From Dehalococcoidia bacterium (lineage in GTDB: Bacteria; Chloroflexota; Dehalococcoidia; Bin125): a stretch of 64,000 nucleotides of DNA. The notes under the pieces are model-generated. The model was not told the origin of the DNA and made no database searches. It was given only the letters and a program-made list of their open reading frames with translations. Location of the stretch: contig OZ244557.1 of NCBI GenBank assembly GCA_965217625.1, forward strand, positions 1,799,305 through 1,863,304, given 5' to 3'. Position 1 is the stretch's first letter. Each line of letters begins with the position of its first letter. The position numbers were made by a program, and so were the translations under genes. Below, piece after piece: positions 2,028 through 25,856 of the stretch.

Positions 2028-2516
2028 CTAGACCCGGCGCCGCTTGCGAGGGCGGCAGCCGTTATGCGGGATGGGTGTGATGTCACGGATGGTGCGCAGC
2101 GCGATGCCGCTGGCCTGTAGGGCGCGGACGGCGGATTCGCGCCCGCTGCCGGGGCCCTTGACGAAGACATCGACCTCGCGGAGGCCGTGGTCCATCGCCT
2201 TGCGGGCGGCGTTCTCGGCCGCGATCTGGGCGGCGTAGGGGGTGCTCTTGCGGGAGCCCTTGACGCCGGTCGAGCCGGCGCTGCCCCAGGCGAGCGTGTT
2301 CCCGTTGAGGTCGGTGAGGGTGATGATCGTGTTGTTGAAGGTCGATTGCACGTAGGCGCGCCCGCGGGGCACGTTCTTGCGCTCCCGGCGCCGGCCGCGT
2401 GCGGCGCGCGCGGGCGCGGGCGCGGTGGTGGCGGGCGCCGTGGCGGCGGGCGCAGCGGCGGCGGGCGGCGCCGGGGCGGCGGGGTCGGGCGGGGGCGTTG
2501 GCTGGTCTTGCACCAT
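2028..2516 (-). CDS. rpsK: 30S ribosomal protein S11 with a Pro/Ala-rich N-terminal extension
   Basis: Core [18 protein letters not shown]...[11 protein letters not shown] is typical S11. About 30 extra P/A-rich residues sit at the N-terminus. Confidence 0.93.
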
Positions 2517-2554
2517 GCGGTCCTCGGGCTCCTTGGATTCCCTTTGCTGGCGGG

Positions 2555-2938
2555 CTACTTCTTGAGGGCGGCGCGACGACGGCCGGCCACGGTCCGGCGC
2601 GCGCCGCGGCGCGTGCGGGCGTTGGTGCGGGTGCGCTGGCCCCGCAAGGGCAGGTTGCGACGGTGGCGCTGGCCGCGGTAGCAGTTGATGTCGATCAGCC
2701 GCTGGATGTTCTGCCGCGTCTCGCGGCGCAGGTCGCCCTCGACGAGGTAGTCGCGGTCGATGATCTCGCGCAGGCGGGAGATCTCCGACTCGGTCAGCTC
2801 GCGCATGCGCTTGTCGGGGTTGAGCTGGCTCTTGCGCACGATCTCCCGCGCGCGAGTGGCCCCAATGCCGTAGATGTAGCGCAGGGCGTACTGGATCTTC
2901 TTGTCGTCCGGCACGTCGACGCCGGAAATGCGGGCCAT
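2555..2938 (-). CDS. rpsM: 30S ribosomal protein S13
   Basis: [26 protein letters not shown] starts at the ATG at 2936-2938. The track ORF extends 18 codons further upstream. Confidence 0.93.
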
Positions 2939-3032
2939 CGTGCTCCTCCTCGTTCCGTTTCCGTTCGTTCCCGATTCCCGCTCCGCGCCCACCCGGACGG
3001 CGACATCCCCCGGCCGGGAGGCCCCAAGCGGG

Positions 3033-3806
3033 TCAGTCCCAGGCGGTCAGGACATCTGCCGGCTCCCCGTCCCGGAGGGCCATTGTGTGTTCGAAGTGAG
3101 CAGAAAGTTTGCCATCTTTTGTGCAGACGGTCCAGCCGTCCGCTAACTCTACGGTCTCCGGGCTGCCAATGGTGGCCATTGGCTCCAGCGCGACGACCAT
3201 TCCGCAGCGCATAATCATGCCGCTGCCCGCGCGGCCGTAGTTCGGCATGCTGGGCGGCTCGTGCATGGCGCGGCCGACGCCATGCCCGACATACTTCCGC
3301 ACCACACCATAGCCCGCGTCCTCGAGCACCGCCTGGATGGCAGCGCCGATGTCGCCCTTGCGGACGCCGACGCGCGCGACATCGATGCCGACCCGCAGCG
3401 ACTCCCGGGTGACGTCGATCAGGCGCTGGGCCTCAGCCGACACCGTCCCGACGGGCACGGTGATGGCGGAGTCCGCCACCCAACCACCGACCGTCGCGCC
3501 GTGGTCGATGGAGAGGATGTCGCCGTCCTCCAGGATACGATCGGTGGCGAAGCCGTGGACGAGCTGTTCGTTCACGGAGGCACAGATGGCGTCGGGGAAG
3601 CCGTGGTAGCCCACGAAGGTGGGCACGACGCCGAGGCGGTCGTACTTGCGCACGACGTGCTGGTTGAGGGCCGCGAGGCGGCGGCCAGGGCGCACCATCG
3701 CGGCGAGCTCCTGCAGCGTTTCGGCGACCAGGCGGCCGGCCGCGCGCATCTGCTCGATCTCCGCCGGGCTCTTGAGGATCACCTGGTTCGCGCGCCCGTC
3801 GAGCAT
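3033..3806 (-). CDS. map: Methionine aminopeptidase type I
   Basis: Reads [24 protein letters not shown]...[11 protein letters not shown]...FEHT. The ATG at 3804-3806 overlaps the adk stop as ATGA. The Arg-rich upstream part of the track ORF is rejected. Confidence 0.92.
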
Positions 3807-4468
3807 CAGCGCCCCTCCGGCAGGCCAGTCGGCAGAGCGGCCAGCAGGTCGGCGCCGACGCCGGCGGGAGGGCGGGCGCCGTCGATGCGGACGAGGCGGC
3901 CGGCCGTCTCGTAGAAGGCGATCAGGGGGGCGGTCTGCTGGGCGTAGACGGAGAGCCGCCGATCGATCGCGGCCGGGGTGTCGTCGTCGCGCTGGGTCAG
4001 CGCGGCGCCGCAGCGGTCGCATGCGCCGGCGGTCGTGGGGGGGTTGTTCGTCTCGTGGTAGACCGAGCCGTCGGCGGGGCAGGTCCAGCGGCCGCCCAGG
4101 CGGGCGCGGACCTCGTCGGGCGGCACGTCGATCAGGAGCGCCGCGTCGACCGCTTGGTCGCGCTCGGCGAGGGCGTCATCGAGGGCGCGCGCTTGCTCGA
4201 CGGTGCGGGGGAAGCCGTCGAGCAGGGACCCGGCGGCGGCATCGGGCCGGTCCATGCGCTCGCGCAGCATGGCGATCGTGACGGCGTCGGGGACGAGTTC
4301 GCCGCGGTCCATGTACTGCTTCGCCAGGCGGCCGAGGTCGGTGCCGCCGCGCACATTCTCGCGGAACATGTCGCCCGTGGCGACGTGCACGAGGCCCGTC
4401 GCCTGCACGATGCGGGCGGCCTGGGTGCCTTTGCCGGCGCCGGGGGGGCCGAGCAGGATGATGTGCAT
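3806..4468 (-). CDS. adk: Adenylate kinase
   Basis: MHIILLGPPGAGKGTQA P-loop and a lid region with CDRCG. Located between secY and map. Confidence 0.95.
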   Translation of the reverse strand: MHIILLGPPGAGKGTQAARIVQATGLVHVATGDMFRENVRGGTDLGRLAKQYMDRGELVPDAVTIAMLRERMDRPDAAAGSLLDGFPRTVEQARALDDALAERDQAVDAALLIDVPPDEVRARLGGRWTCPADGSVYHETNNPPTTAGACDRCGAALTQRDDDTPAAIDRRLSVYAQQTAPLIAFYETAGRLVRIDGARPPAGVGADLLAALPTGLPEGR

Positions 4469-4470
4469 CG

Positions 4471-6222
4471 CTAGCGGATGAACCCTTCGTAGTTGCGCAT
4501 GAGGAGTTGCGACTCGACCTGCTTCATGGTGTCGAGGGCGACGCCGACGACGATCAGCAGGCCGGTGCTGGAGATCGTGAGGGCCTGACTGTCGGGGATG
4601 AACTCGGTCGTCAGGAAGGGCACGATCGCGATGAAGCCGAGGAAGAGGGCGCCCGCGAAGGTGATGCGAACCAGCACCTTGTTGACGTAGTCCTGCGTGG
4701 GACGGCCGGGACGGATGCCGGGCACGAAGCCGCCCTGCTTCTGCAGGTTCTCGGAGATGTTCTGCTGCTGGAAGGTGACCACGGTGTAGAAGAACGTGAA
4801 GCCCATGACGAGCAGGAAGGAGAGCGCCCAGTACAGCGGGCGGCCGGGGGAGAAGTTCTCCTCGACCCAGGAGGCGGCGCGCACGGCGACGCCCGGGCGC
4901 TGGCCGGCGATCTGCCCCTCGACGGCGTCGACGGTGAACGGATCGTCGGGGCCATCGAGGTGGGTGCGCACCGCCGTCTGGGCGATGAGGTCGCCCTCGA
5001 TGTCGTCCAGGACGATGAGCCCGGTTCCGATCTCGTTGTTCTCGATGCTCCAGGTGGGCACGATCTGGCCGCTGCCGGGGTCGGTTTGCGCTTCGACGCG
5101 GGTGAGCACGTTGGCCTTGTTGGCGCGGTTGATGTCATCGATGACGTCGCGGAAGGTGTCCTCCTCGGCGTTCCAGGCGACCTCGCCGGCGTTGACGAGG
5201 ATCGTCCCCTCGGCGGCGATGCCGGGGAAGGCCTCGGCCAGCGACAGTTCGTCGGCCTGGTCGGCGGCGAAGGGCAGCTCGACGCGGGTGCGGGTGGCGG
5301 TGTCGTCGCCGGCCGTGCCGGTCACCCAGCCGGCGATGACGGAGGGGAAGATGATGATCGAGAAGGCGAAGATGAGCGGGATCATGCCGGCGCTGTTAAC
5401 GCGCAGGGGGATATGACTCTGCCCGCTCTGCCGGTACATGCGTCCGCCCCGGAAGACGGACCGGGCGTACTGCACGGGGATGCGTCGCTGGGCTTCCTGG
5501 AAGAAGACGATCAGGGCGACCAGGACCAGGGCGATGGCGACCACGATCAGGATGCCGCTGGCGCCGGTGTCGCTGGCGCGGATGGAGTTGAACAGCGTGG
5601 GGAAGCTGGCGATGATGCCGCCGAAGATGATCAGCGAGATGCCGTTGCCGATGCCGCGCTCCGTGATCAGCTCGCCCAGCCAGATCAGGAACATCGTGCC
5701 GGCGGTCATCGAGATGACGGCCGAGAGCGTGGGCAGGGCGTCGGCGCCGCTGAAGCCGATGCCGGAGATCGCGTTGGCGTTCTCGAGCAGCAGCAACTGG
5801 CCGTAGCCCTGCACCACCGACATGGGCAGCGCGAACCAGTAGGTGTAGAGGCCGATCTTGTTGCGGCCCGCCTCGCCCTCCTTGGAGAGCGCCTGCAGGC
5901 GGGGGATCATCGGCGTCATCAGCTGCATGACGATGGACGCGGTGATGTAGGGATAGACGCCCAGCGCGACGATGCTGAGGTTCTCCAGGCCGCCGCCGCT
6001 GAACAGGTTGAGGAAGCCCAGCACGGGGTTGTTCTGCAGGGCGTTGTCGAGCTGGACGAGGTTGACGTTGGGCACGGGCACGTGCGCGAGGAAGCGGAAG
6101 ACCACCAGCATCGCCAGCGTGAAGGCGAGCTTGCGGCGGACGTCCGGCTGGCGCCAGGCGTCGACGAGGGCCTGGAGCAGGCGCGGTCTAGTTGGACTCT
6201 GCGCCGTCGGGGCTCGCTGCAT
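4471..6222 (-). CDS. secY: Preprotein translocase SecY carrying a roughly 150-aa insertion
   Basis: Conserved blocks are present: LNLFSGGGLENLSIVALGVYPYITASIVMQL, ITERGIGNGISLIIF and GGFVPGIRPGRPT. GAGGAG lies 4 nt upstream of the ATG at 6220-6222. At 583 aa it is far longer than usual. Confidence 0.93.
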   Translation of the reverse strand: MQRAPTAQSPTRPRLLQALVDAWRQPDVRRKLAFTLAMLVVFRFLAHVPVPNVNLVQLDNALQNNPVLGFLNLFSGGGLENLSIVALGVYPYITASIVMQLMTPMIPRLQALSKEGEAGRNKIGLYTYWFALPMSVVQGYGQLLLLENANAISGIGFSGADALPTLSAVISMTAGTMFLIWLGELITERGIGNGISLIIFGGIIASFPTLFNSIRASDTGASGILIVVAIALVLVALIVFFQEAQRRIPVQYARSVFRGGRMYRQSGQSHIPLRVNSAGMIPLIFAFSIIIFPSVIAGWVTGTAGDDTATRTRVELPFAADQADELSLAEAFPGIAAEGTILVNAGEVAWNAEEDTFRDVIDDINRANKANVLTRVEAQTDPGSGQIVPTWSIENNEIGTGLIVLDDIEGDLIAQTAVRTHLDGPDDPFTVDAVEGQIAGQRPGVAVRAASWVEENFSPGRPLYWALSFLLVMGFTFFYTVVTFQQQNISENLQKQGGFVPGIRPGRPTQDYVNKVLVRITFAGALFLGFIAIVPFLTTEFIPDSQALTISSTGLLIVVGVALDTMKQVESQLLMRNYEGFIR

Positions 6223-6673
6223 TCAGCTCCTCAATGGTTCCACCCGCGGCTTCGATCTTCCGGCGCGCGGCAGCCGAGACCTTGGGGGCGCGCAGCGTGA
6301 GGGCGTGGGACAACTCGCCGCCGGCCAGGACTTTGAACGGCTCATCGGCGCGCTTCAGCAGCCGCGCGCCCACGAGCGCCGCCGCATCGACGGTGGCGCC
6401 CGCCGGGAAGCGATCGCCCAGCGCGCCGACGTTGATCGCGGTGTACTCGACGCGGAAGGGATTGCGGAAGCCCGGTTTGCGCGGCAGCTTGCGGATCAGG
6501 GGCATCTGGCCGCCCTCGAAGCCGGGACGGAGGTCGTGCCCGGAGCGCGACTTCTGGCCCTTGAGGCCCTTGCCGGCGTAGGTGCCGCCGCCGGCGGCGT
6601 TGCCGCGGCCGATGCGCTTGCGGGGCCGGGTGGCCCCAGCGGGCGGACGCAGGTCGTTGGCGCGAAGTGGCAT
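6188..6673 (-). CDS. rplO: 50S ribosomal protein L15
   Basis: Contains RKRIGRGNAAGGGTYAGKGLKGQKSRSG. Positioned upstream of secY, which it overlaps by 35 nt. Confidence 0.93.
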   Translation of the reverse strand: MPLRANDLRPPAGATRPRKRIGRGNAAGGGTYAGKGLKGQKSRSGHDLRPGFEGGQMPLIRKLPRKPGFRNPFRVEYTAINVGALGDRFPAGATVDAAALVGARLLKRADEPFKVLAGGELSHALTLRAPKVSAAARRKIEAAGGTIEELNAASPDGAESN

Positions 6674-20692: not shown

Positions 20693-22093
20693 TCAATCGG
20701 CCGCGGCGGCGTCCCCGGCGGTGAGTTCCGGCGCGGCGGCGGCGCGGACGCTGTGATCGATCGGCTCCACGATGTCGATGCGCTTGGCGCCCGACGCCGC
20801 CGGGCCGAGCTCCTCAAACCGCCGGGCGCGAACCAGCACCCGCCCTTCGAGCGAGCCCACGCTGTCGTTGTAGGCGCTCAGGGCCTGCTGGAGCCCCTTG
20901 CCCACGCGCCCCACGTGGCCGGCGTAGACCTGCAGGCTCTCGTACAGCCGCCGCGCCTCGTCCGAGATCTGCTGGGCGTTCTCCTGCATGTCCTGCCGCT
21001 GCCAGGCCAGCGCCACGGTGCGCAGGAACGCCACCAGCAGCCCCGGCGTCGCGATCAGCACGTGGTGCTTCTGCCAGGCGTCCTCCCACAGCGACGGCTG
21101 GACCTCCATGGCCGCCTCCAGGATCGCCTCCGTGGGCAGGAACATGACGACGAAGTCGGGCGAGACGGCCACCGTCGCCGTGTAGTCCTTGTCGCCCAAC
21201 TCCTTGACCCGATCGCCCAGCGACTTCGCGTGCCGCTGCAGCAGTTCCCGCTGCTGCTGCTCGTCGGCCGCGTTGTGCGCGTCGAGGTAGGAGCTGAGCG
21301 GCGTCTTGGCGTCGATCACGACGTGCACGCCGCCGGGGATGCGCACCACCGCGTCGGGCCGCCGCCGCGCCCCGTCATCGTCCGCCGCCGTCGTGACCTG
21401 CTCGTCGAAGTCGATGCCCGGGCGCAGGCCCGACAGCTGCAGGATGTTGCGCAGCTGCTGCTCGCCCCACTGCCCGCGAATCTGCGGCGAGCGCAGCGCC
21501 TCGCTGAGGCTGCCCGTCACCTCCTGCAGCCGGCCGATCTGCACCTTCAGGCCGGCGTAGGCGCCCTCGCGCTTCTGCTCGATGTCGTTGACCTGCTTCT
21601 CGAACTTGTCCAGGTGGTCGCGGACCGGCTTGACCAGCGCCGCGACGGCCTGCTGGCGCTTCTCCAGCTCCGCGTCGCTGACCTGCAGCTGCTGGGCGAA
21701 GTGCGCCGTGGTCTGGACGCGCAGCGCCTCGCTGTTGGCCTTCAGCACGCCCGCCGCGAGGCCCTTGAAGTGCGTGTCGATCTGCGCCTGGGCCTTGGCC
21801 AGCTCCTCGTTGCGAGCGATGTGGTCGGCCCGCACCTGCGCGAGCTCGACGCGGGCCTGCTGGCCCGCCGCCTGGGCCGCATCGCGGTCGCGGCGGGCCG
21901 CGTCGCGGTCGGCCCGGACCTCGTCGAGCTGGCGGTCGCGCTCGGCGATCTGGGCGCTGAGCCCCGCGATGCGCTCGCCCGGCCGCTCCCCGTCGGCCCG
22001 CACCGCCCGCCGCGCCAGGTACGCCGTCGCCAGCACGCCGATCAGCGCCACCAGCCCCACGAGGACGAGTGCGATCTCCATGGTCGGCAGCAT
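20693..22093 (-). CDS. rmuC: DNA recombination protein RmuC
   Basis: N-terminal TM helix MEIALVLVGLVALIGVLA, a long coiled coil, then the RmuC nuclease-like block PDAVVRIPGGVHVVIDAKTPL...DFVVMFLPTEA. Start is the ATG at 22093 or 22081. Confidence 0.88.
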   Translation of the reverse strand: MLPTMEIALVLVGLVALIGVLATAYLARRAVRADGERPGERIAGLSAQIAERDRQLDEVRADRDAARRDRDAAQAAGQQARVELAQVRADHIARNEELAKAQAQIDTHFKGLAAGVLKANSEALRVQTTAHFAQQLQVSDAELEKRQQAVAALVKPVRDHLDKFEKQVNDIEQKREGAYAGLKVQIGRLQEVTGSLSEALRSPQIRGQWGEQQLRNILQLSGLRPGIDFDEQVTTAADDDGARRRPDAVVRIPGGVHVVIDAKTPLSSYLDAHNAADEQQQRELLQRHAKSLGDRVKELGDKDYTATVAVSPDFVVMFLPTEAILEAAMEVQPSLWEDAWQKHHVLIATPGLLVAFLRTVALAWQRQDMQENAQQISDEARRLYESLQVYAGHVGRVGKGLQQALSAYNDSVGSLEGRVLVRARRFEELGPAASGAKRIDIVEPIDHSVRAAAAPELTAGDAAAAD

Positions 22094-22127
22094 AGGGGGT
22101 GGGGTCGGGGGTCGGGGGGTCGGGGGG

Positions 22128-23447
22128 CTACGACGCCTGCAGGACGCCACGCTCCCGCAGCACCGACAGCAGATAGGCCTGCGGGCGATCGCCCTTGAGG
22201 CTGTTGCAGGCGCCGCACAGCAGTTGCAGGTTCGACAGGTGATCCGTCCCGCCTTGGCTGCTCGGCACGACGTGATCGACTGTGAAGTTGCGGAACGGGA
22301 AGAAGACCCGGCAGCCGGCACAGACGCCCTCCTGCTGCCCGTAGAGGTGGTGCTTGTGCGTGCGGTAGGCCGGCAGGTCGCCGATGTCGGTGCGCTGGGG
22401 GATGTCGTCGCGGCGGATGCAGCGCGCGAAGGTGCGCGCGCGGTCTCGGAGCCGGCGCTCCACCAGTTCGGCGGCCAGGGGAGAGAGGTCGATCCCGACC
22501 CACTGCCGCTCATGATGCTCGGCGGCCACACAGGCCGTCGCACAACCGGCGAACGGGTCGAGGATGACATCGCCGGGATTGCTGCTCGCGAGGACGATGC
22601 GCTCAAGGAGCCTGAGGGGCTTTTGCGTCGGGTACCCGACGCGTTCTTTGTTCTTGGGGCCGCCGAGAATCTTGATATCTTCCCACCAGTCGCTCAGGGG
22701 CGGGTTCCCACCCTGGAAGGCAACGGGCTTTAGATCAGGCGGGATTACACCGCTCGCGACGGCCGCGTGGTACTTGTCCCAGTCGAAAACGGTGACCATC
22801 CGCTTCGCGTTGTTGGCGTTGTAGCCACGTCGGCGGCCGGAGGCGAACGTGCGCAACGACCCCGCAGTTGGTGGGCCGGTGATCTTGTTGAACGTCGCGG
22901 CGTTGTCTCGGGCGTAGAACAAGATGATGTCGTGCTTCGCTTGGAACTTCTTCGCCCTCGACGGCAGCCCGCGGTAGCACCAGGCGATCTCGTTCCGGAA
23001 CTGGGCCACCCCGAACACGGCATCCAGCAGCAGCTTGAGATAGTGGCTCGCAGTCGGGTCGCAGTGCAAATACAGGCTCCCCGTGTCTTTGAGCAGCCGG
23101 TGCATCTCCAGCAGCCGGACGGCCATCATGATGAGGTAGGACTGCATCCCCGGCCCGTGGGTCTGGCCCGCGGCGGCGATGGCTGCGTAGACGGCCGGAG
23201 CCTGCTCCGCGATCTCTCCGTGCCACGCCAGGTCCACATCGTCGAGCGTCCACGTGTCCTTGAAGGCAACTCCCGCCGCCTCGGAACCGATGGGGGCGCT
23301 GTAGGTCTTGTTCGAGTTGAAGGGCGGATCCAGGTAGATCAGGTCGACGCTGGCGCTGTTCATGCCGCGCATGATGGGCAGGTTGTCGCCCGTCCAGATC
23401 GTCCGGTTGGCCCAGTTGGGATCCGCCATGCGGTCGCCCGGCGGCAC
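22128..23447 (-). CDS. N6-adenine/N4-cytosine DNA methyltransferase (beta-class motif order) fused to a C-terminal HNH endonuclease domain
   Basis: Methyltransferase part has DLIYLDPPFNS (motif IV), then YPTQKPLRLLERIV and VILDPFAGCATACVAA (motif I). The C-terminus reads CAGC...FTVDHVVPSSQGGTDHLSNLQLLCGACNSLKGDR, an HNH domain with CxxC pairs. Confidence 0.85.
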   Translation of the reverse strand: MPPGDRMADPNWANRTIWTGDNLPIMRGMNSASVDLIYLDPPFNSNKTYSAPIGSEAAGVAFKDTWTLDDVDLAWHGEIAEQAPAVYAAIAAAGQTHGPGMQSYLIMMAVRLLEMHRLLKDTGSLYLHCDPTASHYLKLLLDAVFGVAQFRNEIAWCYRGLPSRAKKFQAKHDIILFYARDNAATFNKITGPPTAGSLRTFASGRRRGYNANNAKRMVTVFDWDKYHAAVASGVIPPDLKPVAFQGGNPPLSDWWEDIKILGGPKNKERVGYPTQKPLRLLERIVLASSNPGDVILDPFAGCATACVAAEHHERQWVGIDLSPLAAELVERRLRDRARTFARCIRRDDIPQRTDIGDLPAYRTHKHHLYGQQEGVCAGCRVFFPFRNFTVDHVVPSSQGGTDHLSNLQLLCGACNSLKGDRPQAYLLSVLRERGVLQAS

Positions 23448-23839
23448 CGGTTGCTACGCGACTGGAATCGGCCGCGCGATCGCGCCGACCGCCAAGCTGC
23501 GGTGGCAGGTGTGATTCGCCGGCCGTCCCCGCACCGCTACGGCCCGCGTCTGCAGGCCCTGGTCCTCCACGAGGTGCCCCCTCTCGGCAACGGACGGATG
23601 GGGACTTGCCAGTCATCCAGCTGTCTCGCGTGAGCCTTGAGGGGGCAGGAGCCCGCCCCGCGGCCGAAGCCCACGCGGAAAACATGCTCAGACGACTGGC
23701 AAGTCGGAAGGAAAGCTATGGGCAGGGGGTAGTCGCGTCAAGCAGGGTCAGGTTGAGGCACTGCCCGGGAGGAGTTGGGAGTCCACGTCCGGGGGGTCCG
23801 TGCGGGCCGACGAAAGATCACGCCCCCGGCGATGACCGA

Positions 23840-24274
23840 TCAGTTGTTCTCCGAATGACGCTGGTGTTGCGTGCGCTGCCAGACCTGATGCTCGCGGGAG
23901 ATCAATTCCTCCGTGCGCAGCGTGAGTTCCTCCGCAAGATCGTCATCTCCAAGACCGCGGTAGGGCCCTGTCCGAGTGTCATAGAATGCTCGCTCTTTCT
24001 TCAGGGCCTCCGCGTTCCCGCGAAACTGAAGCCAGTTCTCTTGCCACTTGAACAAGGCGAGCAAAGAGAGGGCAACGGTGGCGAGCGCGCCCAGCCCCGC
24101 CAGTGCCCAGCGATCGAGGTCCACAGTGGCGGCGACCGGGATGCTCGCAGCAGCGATGATGGCTAGCACCGACGCGCAATGGAAGCAGCGCTTGTTCGCC
24201 GCCGCCCGGCGCTCGTAGTACTCGATCTCTGGCGCAAGGCGCTCGGCGACGTACTTCTCTGCGTCTAGTTGCAC
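23840..24274 (-). CDS. Two-TM DUF4231/SLATT-like putative membrane effector
   Basis: Reads EIEYYERRAAANKR, then two hydrophobic helices (ASVLAIIAAASIPVAATV and WALAGLGALATVALSLLALF), then WQENWLQFRGNAEALKKERAFY. The preferred GTG at 24272-24274 overlaps the end of the TIR gene. An alternative GTG lies at 24352. Confidence 0.7.
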   Translation of the reverse strand: MQLDAEKYVAERLAPEIEYYERRAAANKRCFHCASVLAIIAAASIPVAATVDLDRWALAGLGALATVALSLLALFKWQENWLQFRGNAEALKKERAFYDTRTGPYRGLGDDDLAEELTLRTEELISREHQVWQRTQHQRHSENN

Positions 24275-24786
24275 GGGCGATTGTTCTTGAAAAGGTCGCG
24301 CCTGTTGTCGGGAGTATGCGTCGAGCGCCGGTCGAACGCCTCCTGGATCCACTTCCGAACTGTGCTTTCGGACGAAGGGTAGGCGTAGTACCGGGCATAC
24401 GAGGAGGAGTCATCCTTCGTCCAGTTGTCCTGGAGTCGAACTGGCGCTGCGTTGCGGGTCCCCAGGCTCTTGAGATTGATGCCGAGCAGCCCGCTCCGGC
24501 CGTTCTCGGGATCGTTCCGGAGCGTCGAGGCGATCTCCCAGTCGACGTACTTCCGCGCCTGGGTGCATTCGCCGATGAGGACGATGGTCACCGTAGAGTC
24601 CGTAAGATACTCCTCGCGGATCCTCCGCATGACGTAGTTGCGGTTCTCGGAGTTGATGAAATCGTCGGTGTCTGATACTCCCACCGTCTTCGCGATGAAG
24701 ACATCCTCGAAATCATCGAGGAAGCGCTGGACGGCCACCCGATTCTTGGCGTGGTAGGAAACGAAGCACTTGTGCCGCACAGCCAT
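24265..24786 (-). CDS. ThsB-type TIR-like (DUF1863-like) protein
   Basis: Contains KCFVSYHAKN near the N-terminus and STVTIVLIGECTQARKYVDWEIAS. This parallels the FFSFHY... and SVTCVLIGSQTFNRRWVRYEI blocks of Bacillus ThsB as I recall them. GAGGAAG lies 7 nt upstream of the ATG. Confidence 0.75.
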   Translation of the reverse strand: MAVRHKCFVSYHAKNRVAVQRFLDDFEDVFIAKTVGVSDTDDFINSENRNYVMRRIREEYLTDSTVTIVLIGECTQARKYVDWEIASTLRNDPENGRSGLLGINLKSLGTRNAAPVRLQDNWTKDDSSSYARYYAYPSSESTVRKWIQEAFDRRSTHTPDNRRDLFKNNRPCN

Positions 24787-24875
24787 GGAGCAGTCTTCCT
24801 CACCCGTTAGTCACCCGGTGCCATCTCAGACGCACCATCACAGCCTACTCCATGCTCAGCAGTCGAGCCCGGCCT

Positions 24876-25856
24876 TCACACCCCCGCATACGAGTGCAGA
24901 CCGCTGACCCACAGGTTGACGCCCAGGTACGTGAACAGGACGGCGGCGAAGCCCACGACGACGATCCAGGGGCCGGGGGGCGGCCACAGGCGGCGTCGGC
25001 GGGGGCGGGGAGCGGTGGCTTTGACGGTCCGGGCGCCGGGGCCGGCGGCGGCGGGCTGCAGGCCGCGGGCGTGCAGGTAGACGGCGAAGATGAGCCAGGT
25101 GACGAGGGCGGCGGTCTCCTTGGGATCCCAGCCCCAATAGCGGCCCCAGGCGTCGTTGGCCCAGAGGGCGCCCAGGGCGACGCCGGCGCCCAGCAAGGGG
25201 AAGCCCACGAGGACTGCGCGGTGGGTGAGCTCCTCGGCGCGGCGGGGCGAGGGCAGCCAGGCGATGCGCTGACGGTCGTTGCCCTGGACGATGTGCATGA
25301 CGGCGGCGCCGAAGGCCACGGCCAGGACGGCGTAGGCGAGGATCATGACGGAGACGTGGATGGTGAGCAGGGTGGGGTTCTGCAGCGCCGGGACGAGCGT
25401 CGGCTGGCCGGCGCTGGGGAAGACGAGGGCGCTGGCGTAGAGGCCGAAGGAGACGGGCATCACGAACGCGCCCAGCAGCCGCGTGCGGTAGGCGCGCTCG
25501 AAGAGGAGGTAGACCAGCGCGATGGCGAAGCCGAAGGCCATCGAGAACTCGAACAGGTTGCTGAACGGCGGGTGGTCGAGGGCGATGGTGCGGAAGACGA
25601 GGCCCAGGCCGCCGAAGACGACCGACGTCCAGGCGGCGAAGGTCGCGAGGCCGCCGAGGGTGCGCGGGCGGGCGGCGCGTCCGGGCGGCGGGGCGGTCGC
25701 GACGCCCGAGGGCGCGCCCTCGGGGAGGGGGGCCGCAGCCGGGGCGCGGGCGAGCAGGCGGATCCGCGGCGCGGCGGCGAAGCCGATGTACAGCGGGGCG
25801 GCGATGCCCGCCGCGACGAGTCCGGCCCACAAGCAGTAGAGGGCGAGGTCTTCCAC
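24876..25856 (-). CDS. ccsA: Cytochrome c biogenesis protein CcsA/ResC family
   Basis: Polytopic membrane protein containing the WGRYWGWDPKETAAL heme-handling motif. Confidence 0.88.
   Translation of the reverse strand: MEDLALYCLWAGLVAAGIAAPLYIGFAAAPRIRLLARAPAAAPLPEGAPSGVATAPPPGRAARPRTLGGLATFAAWTSVVFGGLGLVFRTIALDHPPFSNLFEFSMAFGFAIALVYLLFERAYRTRLLGAFVMPVSFGLYASALVFPSAGQPTLVPALQNPTLLTIHVSVMILAYAVLAVAFGAAVMHIVQGNDRQRIAWLPSPRRAEELTHRAVLVGFPLLGAGVALGALWANDAWGRYWGWDPKETAALVTWLIFAVYLHARGLQPAAAGPGARTVKATAPRPRRRRLWPPPGPWIVVVGFAAVLFTYLGVNLWVSGLHSYAGV

Follow-up and report, generated by a model that had tools for sequence, protein, structure and literature searches.

A probable two-gene Thoeris system of type VII architecture, with a ThsB-type TIR and a minimal SLATT protein, in a Dehalococcoidia genome

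Can a TIR protein and a small membrane protein make up a complete antiphage defense module with no separate ligand sensor between them? The question is raised by two overlapping genes in a 64,000-nucleotide stretch of contig OZ244557.1 from a Dehalococcoidia bacterium (hereafter the window), one encoding a ThsB-type TIR protein and the other a SLATT protein with two transmembrane (TM) helices. An original prediction, made from the letters of the DNA, took the pair for a candidate Thoeris-like abortive-infection module without a SLOG, Macro, or SIR2 sensor, and knew of no characterized system of the same design. Domain searches agree with its account of the module. The premise of novelty fails, because TIR-SLATT operons have been validated as type VII Thoeris (ThsB plus ThsH, signaling by cyclic ADP-ribose [cADPR]), and the gene neighborhood was already in print in 2022. 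The window pair is a known architecture in a further lineage and is no longer new. We consider it quite probable that the locus is a two-gene abortive-infection system of the Thoeris type with this type VII architecture.

What is known of type VII comes largely from a preprint of December 2025 (Yirmiya et al., bioRxiv 10.64898/2025.12.03.692087), in which a scan of TIR clusters enriched in defense islands led to TIR-SLATT neighbors. Three of the six operons cloned defended against phages, namely those of an Alteromonadales scaffold, Pseudohongiella nitratireducens SCS-111, and Bacillus licheniformis SCCB 37. The architecture, which works as two genes, was named type VII Thoeris and its effector ThsH, Thoeris types being defined by the effector. 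According to the same preprint, type VII TIRs produce canonical cADPR upon infection only; cADPR in the medium arrests cells that carry the system, while 2'cADPR and 3'cADPR do not, and the system is insensitive to the Tad1 and MoTad2 sponges. An AlphaFold 3 model of ThsH is a membrane-spanning oligomer with positively charged pockets between protomers, and types VII and VIII jointly occur in ~2% of genomes (bioRxiv 10.64898/2025.12.03.692087). The original prediction had offered, as the first of two mechanisms, that the two-TM protein senses the TIR product directly, and this has been demonstrated experimentally for the architecture elsewhere. Unrelated animal TIRs that make cADPR also trigger the validated systems, and a 2026 preprint has type VII Thoeris serving as a cADPR biosensor. 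Earlier, TIR-SLATT neighborhoods were described in Firmicute phages, with the prediction that SLATT controls membrane permeability as an effector under the regulation of ADP-ribose derivatives (Iyer, Burroughs, Anantharaman, and Aravind, 2022; PMC9503650). SLATT proteins also serve as the effectors of DRT10, a kind of system based on a defense-associated reverse transcriptase (DRT), and occur as effectors in contexts of cyclic oligonucleotide-based antiphage signaling systems (CBASS).

The two proteins and their overlapping genes

The TIR protein matches Pfam ThsB_TIR (PF08937, E = 3.1e-16) and the PADLOC model ThsB (E = 1.8e-10), with the TIR domain covering residues ~8 to 107 and a conserved C-terminal extension following it. 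Its catalytic Glu is E84, within the motif YVDWEI. Among more than 1180 homologues found, 29 were aligned, and in this alignment W83 is nearly invariant and D82 and E84 fully so. The AlphaFold 2 (AF2) model of the protein, with a predicted local distance difference test score (pLDDT) of 87.7 and a predicted template modeling score of 0.86, has EcThsB (8wcf), a B. cereus TIR (8fz9), and ThsB-Tad3 (9b7d) as its top matches in the PDB. By sequence as well, the family profile finds BcThsB (6lhy and 9b7d), aligning the Glu of WEI on the Glu of a YEI motif, the catalytic E85 of BcThsB. The ThsB-type assignment is accordingly borne out by Pfam, by PADLOC, by structural comparison to the PDB, and by the conserved Glu.

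Other positions of the TIR subfamily are also conserved. Cys74 and Cys172 are invariant, the latter being the penultimate residue in a tail reading ...NNRxC; H5, C7, and H12 are nearly invariant; and a C-terminal extension of ~65 residues past the Pfam ThsB_TIR domain is maintained, with residues 120 to 173 flagged. These cysteines, histidines, and the extension might constitute a metal or redox site, or a phage-sensing surface.

The second protein belongs to the SLATT superfamily, as shown by matches to Pfam DUF4231 (E = 8.3e-19) and SLATT_1 (E = 8.2e-6) and to NCBIfam SLATT_1 (NF033634, E = 6.7e-29). Hydropathy peaks near residues 42 and 66 of the 144-residue form, and the AF2 model (pLDDT 79.6) has helices at residues 5 to 50, 55 to 74, 77 to 100, and 110 to 142. 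The model gives two predicted TM helices (~31 to 50 and 55 to 74) joined by a 4-residue loop, with both termini cytoplasmic. The layout is that of an N-terminal cytoplasmic helix and a C-terminal cytoplasmic helical region with conserved Arg and aromatic residues. The DUF4231/SLATT call of the original prediction, with its two TM segments, agrees with all of these results. Among 44 diverse members of the family, R12, Y20, W81, R85, Y105, R120, E122, and W132 are invariant or nearly so; the placing of these fixed Arg and aromatic residues outside the membrane would suit a putative nucleotide pocket. The family is large: 2194 cluster representatives reach E <= 1e-3, almost all of them stand-alone and 135 to 165 residues long.

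Both open reading frames lie on the minus strand where they had been placed, and the four peptides quoted for them are all found: KCFVSYHAKN starts at residue 6 of the TIR protein and STVTIVLIGECTQARKYVDWEIAS at residue 64, with EIEYYERRAAANKR and WQENWLQFRGNAEALKKERAFY both in the SLATT reading frame. The coordinates are collected in Table 1. The GTG start of the SLATT gene falls within the final codons of the TIR gene, as had been claimed, and the resulting 10-nt overlap implies translational coupling and a single operon. Gene calls overlap by 4 to 10 nt in the homologous loci L001, L003, L004, L030, L066, L067, and L068 too. A length of 144 to 170 residues had been allowed for the SLATT protein. 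Both frames exist, the longer one occupying positions 23840 to 24352 when counted from its first GTG; we rejected that 170-residue start and set the start at the GTG at 24274, because every homologue is 141 to 145 residues long. The 5' flank of the TIR gene reads ...GGGTGAGGAAGACTGCTCC-ATG. A consensus scan detected no sigma-70-like promoter at the locus, and the promoter/terminator scan returned no terminator-like site on the coding strand.

Conservation of the pair and its foreign setting

If the two genes form one system, they should be found together in other genomes. A ThsB_TIR gene of 170 to 192 codons stands directly 5' of every close SLATT homologue (64 to 89% identity) whose contig could be read there, in six contexts besides that of the window (Table 1), and the proposed test of neighbor conservation thus comes out in favor of the pair. 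The nearest homologues are from metagenome-assembled genomes (MAGs) of Dehalococcoidia and Chloroflexota. Several of the six contexts are mobile or rich in defense genes. In two independent contigs (L067 and L068) a tyrosine recombinase of the phage-integrase family lies immediately upstream of the pair, which suggests that the pair may ride on small integrative elements. Of the other contexts, L003/L066 lies among metabolic genes.

In the window, the pair and a methylase-HNH gene form an islet that is compositionally foreign. Its G+C content (GC) is 0.58 to 0.64 over positions ~22500 to 24900, compared to 0.70 to 0.77 in the flanks, and third-position GC (GC3) is 0.83 for the TIR gene, 0.75 for the SLATT gene, and 0.875 for the methylase-HNH gene, compared to 0.96 to 0.97 in adjoining housekeeping genes. 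A less GC-rich islet had been proposed from hand counts of single lines of sequence, and these prove exact (61.7, 53.3, and 51.7% inside, 81.7% in the adjacent ccsA gene). The islet is bordered by RmuC and rpsL-rpsG-fusA on one side and by the housekeeping genes ccsA, PIG-L, and GT4 on the other. In the window itself, the pair has no adjoining integrase gene.

More distant SLATT_1 relatives were collected from GTDB genomes by a search with a 15-sequence alignment (n = 17, 26 to 39% identity). The commonest neighbor among them is again a TIR gene, in 5 of 17 (L011, L013, L015, L017, and L022), followed by patatin in 3 and PGDYG in 2.

Table 1. Features of the TIR-SLATT locus in the window, and gene contexts of close SLATT homologues elsewhere
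Feature	Position	Strand	Description
thsB-like TIR gene	24265..24786	minus	173 aa; ATG start; TAG at 24265-24267
thsH-like SLATT gene	23840..24274	minus	144 aa; GTG start at 24272-24274
Overlap of TIR 3' end and SLATT GTG start	24265..24274	minus	10 nt, read from sequence
Putative Shine-Dalgarno-like GAGGA	24797..24801	minus	10 nt 5' of TIR ATG
Low-GC islet	22128..24786		methylase-HNH + SLATT + TIR; ~2.7 kb, compositionally foreign
Methylase-HNH gene	22128..23447	minus	N6/N4 DNA-methyltransferase fused to C-terminal HNH nuclease (Pfam, PADLOC)
RmuC	20693-22100	minus	between islet and rpsL; PADLOC match "RTasRmuC (DRT)"
L004/L005			syntenic with window: ccsA - TIR - SLATT - methylase-HNH - RmuC - rpsL
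L001/L002/L006			Dehalococcoidia MAG; second ThsB_TIR + TIR_2/LD_cluster2/Nmad2/MazG cluster alongside
L003/L066			TIR-SLATT among metabolic genes
L030			Chloroflexota MAG; TIR-SLATT adjoined by 48%-identical methylase(-HNH)
L067			Eco57I - tyrosine recombinase (2197-3087) - TIR - SLATT - GIY-YIG
L068			tyrosine recombinase (2414-3316) - TIR - SLATT - ThsB_TIR - Nmad2

Relation to known systems and competing explanations

To place the locus among known systems, five gene products (TIR, SLATT, methylase-HNH, RmuC, and ccsA) were scanned with Pfam. The hallmarks of other types are missing from them: neither SIR2 nor SLOG, as in type I, is matched by the neighbors SLATT, methylase-HNH, RmuC, and ccsA; no Macro domain, as in type II, is matched by the two-TM protein at E <= 0.1; and in the five products there is no DUF6650, as in type VI, and no CD-NTase, nucleotidyltransferase, or reverse transcriptase, as in CBASS or DRT. 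Within 19 to 27 kb of the window no Rfam family is matched at E <= 0.1, and so no DRT10-type noncoding RNA (ncRNA) is seen. In type II Thoeris a TIR signal likewise activates a membrane-spanning effector, but that effector has a Macro sensor and responds to histidine-ADP-ribose (His-ADPR), and the window protein has no Macro domain. CBASS and DRT10/UG17 resemble the locus in using the two-TM SLATT superfamily as the terminal membrane effector of an enzyme that generates nucleotides or nucleic acids, and overlapping coupled genes are typical of SLATT-reverse transcriptase pairs too; in place of a TIR, however, they have a CD-NTase or, together with an ncRNA, a reverse transcriptase as the generator, and DRT10 uses SLATT_5. 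The TIR-SLATT genes of Firmicute phages (PMC9503650) have the same domain pairing but are phage-borne. The window SLATT subfamily differs from those, as tblastn of the window protein against 50,697 phage records gave no match; for the same reason the idea of a phage-borne subfamily was dropped.

What remains is the type VII design, which the window pair shares in its two-gene operon, its small ThsB-type TIR with a catalytic Glu and a SLATT membrane protein, its lack of a SLOG, Macro, or SIR2 sensor, the SLATT_1-type domain of both effectors, and its occurrence in defense or mobile contexts. It differs in host, the lineage of the window (Chloroflexota/Dehalococcoidia) lying outside the tested systems. 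By analogy with those systems, from which the defense phenotype, the infection-dependent synthesis of cADPR, and the cADPR-specific toxicity are taken, the TIR would be silent until phage infection and would then use E84 to cyclize nicotinamide adenine dinucleotide (NAD+) to a cADPR isomer. The isomer would bind the 144-residue SLATT protein in its cytoplasmic helical region, rich in Arg and aromatic residues, and the protein would oligomerize or open in the inner membrane, so that membrane integrity is lost and growth stops before phage release. The identity of the isomer, the ligand pocket, and the oligomeric pore of the window pair are our inferences. A separate SLOG or Macro sensor would not be needed, because SLATT would be both receptor and effector.

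Several findings weigh against this type VII assignment. When BLASTP was used to compare the window TIR with the TIR domains that Table S1 of the preprint lists for every tested system, the nearest were type VI TIRs of cluster 2741407742, with 43% identity over 128 residues (E = 1e-22) to the TIR of a Gammaproteobacteria scaffold and E values of ~1e-16 to those of E. coli S1 and ACN001. Matches to the TIRs of validated type VII systems are weak (B. licheniformis, E = 0.19; Alteromonadales, E = 0.45) or, for Pseudohongiella, absent. The effectors differ in form as well. To find proxies for the Alteromonadales ThsH, we turned to metagenomic loci whose TIRs share 68 to 95% identity with the tested ThsB of that system. 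In 17 of them, a count that leaves out a 170-residue truncated match at the contig end of L059, a tandem SLATT_3 + SLATT_1 protein of ~290 residues (288 to 306) is encoded directly downstream; compared by BLASTP, such a proxy and the window SLATT are 21% identical (E = 0.017). No PADLOC 2.0 model matches the SLATT protein, the PADLOC-DB 2.0 release (2023) being older than the description of type VII. The PDB offers no solved SLATT structure to anchor the proposed pocket and pore. The locus also lies outside any large defense island, with the methylase-HNH gene as the sole adjoining candidate. The PADLOC and structural checks called for by the original prediction were accordingly divided: the TIR is matched in PADLOC by ThsB and by the candidate model PDC-M50B and in the PDB by ThsB structures, but the SLATT protein has no match in PADLOC and none in the PDB below E = 0.6 with Foldseek or at E <= 1 with profiles. 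The PDC-M50 partner model gave no match to the SLATT protein, and no mention of PDC-M50 was found in the papers searched.

The effectors were also compared by profile. Loci with the tandem form, for which four TM helices are predicted, include L033 to L049, L052, L055, and L058; against proxies beside TIRs 84 to 95% identical to the Alteromonadales ThsB, the profile of the window family gives E values of 1e-12 to 1e-17, matching both tandem halves and the C-terminal half more strongly. In addition, three loci of the same Alteromonadales TIR clade (L050, L051, and L053) encode a single SLATT protein of 144 to 151 residues that is 32% identical to that of the window (E = 3e-26). Judged by these similarities, the window effector appears to be a minimal single-domain form related to effectors that are also used by TIRs of a validated cADPR clade.

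The TIR mismatch bears on the messenger. A possible but distinctly doubtful alternative keeps the same logic with 2'cADPR or another isomer as the signal and a single-domain SLATT tuned to match, through effector swapping across signal classes. Its case is the closeness of the window TIR to type VI TIRs, which share 41 to 43% identity over 101 to 128 residues (E = 1e-16 to 1e-22), the HKxFxSYH N terminus, the DSTVT(I/V)VLIG strand and, in the scaffold TIR, VDWEI, set beside its only remote likeness to validated type VII TIRs. Only 2'cADPR elicits a response from the type VI Gammaproteobacteria system (bioRxiv 10.64898/2025.12.03.692087), and window-like TIRs (59 to 69% identity) pair elsewhere with TPR-S/abhydrolase, HEPN_LA2681, and proteins of 213 to 249 residues of unknown kind. 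Type VI systems signal with 2'cADPR, and their effector is DUF6650 (ThsG), a domain without a match in the scanned products of the window. Against the alternative, all three validated SLATT-type systems use cADPR, and the single SLATTs at 32% identity adjoin cADPR-clade TIRs. The window TIR does fall outside the TIR clusters of the validated cADPR-making systems, a criterion that is supportive rather than defining, as the types are defined by effector. Type VII TIRs were drawn from at least four TIR clusters (bioRxiv 10.64898/2025.12.03.692087). Cluster 2741407742 also includes a TIR adjoining a cADPR-type (type VIII) effector, and the clade of a TIR is therefore not a clean predictor of its cyclic ADPR product. 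Within the type VII assignment, then, canonical cADPR ranks first by analogy and is somewhat favored as the product, with 2'cADPR or another isomer a serious but lesser prospect.

The remaining explanations change the roles of the parts. That the methylase-HNH gene works as the third member of a single three-gene system is unlikely, even with a 48%-identical methylase(-HNH) adjoining TIR-SLATT in two unrelated contexts (the window lineage and L030) and a low GC3 in all three genes: the four other independent contexts (L001, L003/L066, L067, and L068) lack the methylase, in L030 it is inverted and its HNH is broken by an in-frame stop, 390 nt separate it from the SLATT gene in the window, and the validated type VII systems function with two genes. 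Less probable still is a TIR that itself kills by depleting NAD+, with SLATT as an anchor, sensor, or independent toxin. TIRs acting as NAD+-degrading effectors are common in bacteria, and Yirmiya et al. give such a caveat for unverified Thoeris types, but the window TIR is a bare ThsB-type domain with no sensor or partner-binding domain, like known signal producers; exogenous cADPR alone is toxic in TIR-SLATT systems, and SLATT is the terminal effector in CBASS and DRT10 contexts. The least credible is a pair gated by contact, in which the TIR holds the SLATT toxin shut in the manner of a toxin-antitoxin system and releases it on infection with no diffusible signal. Overlapping coupled genes would give such a pair a fixed stoichiometry, and no ligand-binding domain is recognizable by sequence. 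The catalytic Glu and the active-site motif are nevertheless invariant across the family, which argues for an enzymatic function of the TIR, and the validated systems are triggered by free cADPR in the medium and by cADPR-making animal TIRs.

With the two-gene type VII system as the preferred explanation, the locus extends this architecture to an uncultured lineage of high GC that is probably Chloroflexota, and with a 173-residue TIR, a 144-residue SLATT, and overlapping genes it is among the smallest versions. The pairing of a TIR that resembles type VI with an effector of type VII is a mismatch that offers a natural test of whether TIR phylogeny predicts the cADPR isomer, and a second question is how a bare cytoplasmic SLATT region of ~65 residues recognizes a ligand. 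We entertain only tentatively that the subfamily joins a type VI-clade TIR to a minimal SLATT gated by 2'cADPR or another isomer; if so, the 144-residue SLATT would serve as a plug-in receptor-pore with a ligand specificity retuned across Thoeris signal classes. Aside from the clade mismatch and the minimal receptor-pore, the window pair is an ordinary pair of defense genes.

Neighboring genes and other partners

The methylase-HNH gene, 390 nt downstream of SLATT, matches Pfam N6_N4_Mtase (E = 1.6e-36) and HNH (E = 3.4e-12) and PADLOC MTase_II. It is probably a separate gene of restriction-modification kind, not shown as a Thoeris component, although as a recurrent neighbor it might travel with the pair as a compact mobile defense islet. 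Its counterpart in L030 (positions 5157 to 6491, minus strand; 48% identity, E = 1e-129) adjoins the TIR-SLATT pair on the opposite strand and has an in-frame stop directly before the catalytic "DH" motif of HNH, after which the HNH resumes in frame. The gene may be a pseudogene, or the stop may be a sequencing error or a recoded codon. RmuC was rejected as a DRT-linked component, the PADLOC match being to the RmuC domain only; its GC3 is host-like (0.97) and its synteny with rpsL is kept in relatives, so it is probably a housekeeping rather than a defense gene. ARAGORN found no tRNA or tmRNA gene in the 64-kb window.

TIR homologues 59 to 69% identical to that of the window also occur with no SLATT gene downstream, in L029, L031, and L032. 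Their partners are a 612-residue abhydrolase-TPR-S-TIR_2 protein (L029), an unknown 249-residue protein together with HEPN_LA2681 (L031), and an unknown 213-residue protein (L032), which may be further Thoeris effector types. Such partner swapping among window-like TIRs is the modular effector exchange described in the Thoeris literature.

SLATT proteins, for their part, have neighbors that are not linked to TIR. A patatin-like phospholipase adjoins distant SLATT_1/DUF4231 relatives in L009, L016, and L023 (Thiothrix and Chitinophagaceae), and small PGDYG proteins adjoin SLATT in L019 and L028 (Lewinellaceae), with PGDYG-SLATT fusions in P0216 and P0238. In the archaeon Methanosarcina sp. Mfa9 (L015, positions 4420 to 5971), a SLATT gene lies between two ThsB_TIR genes, all three overlapping, and the downstream TIR carries a fused DUF6011 domain.

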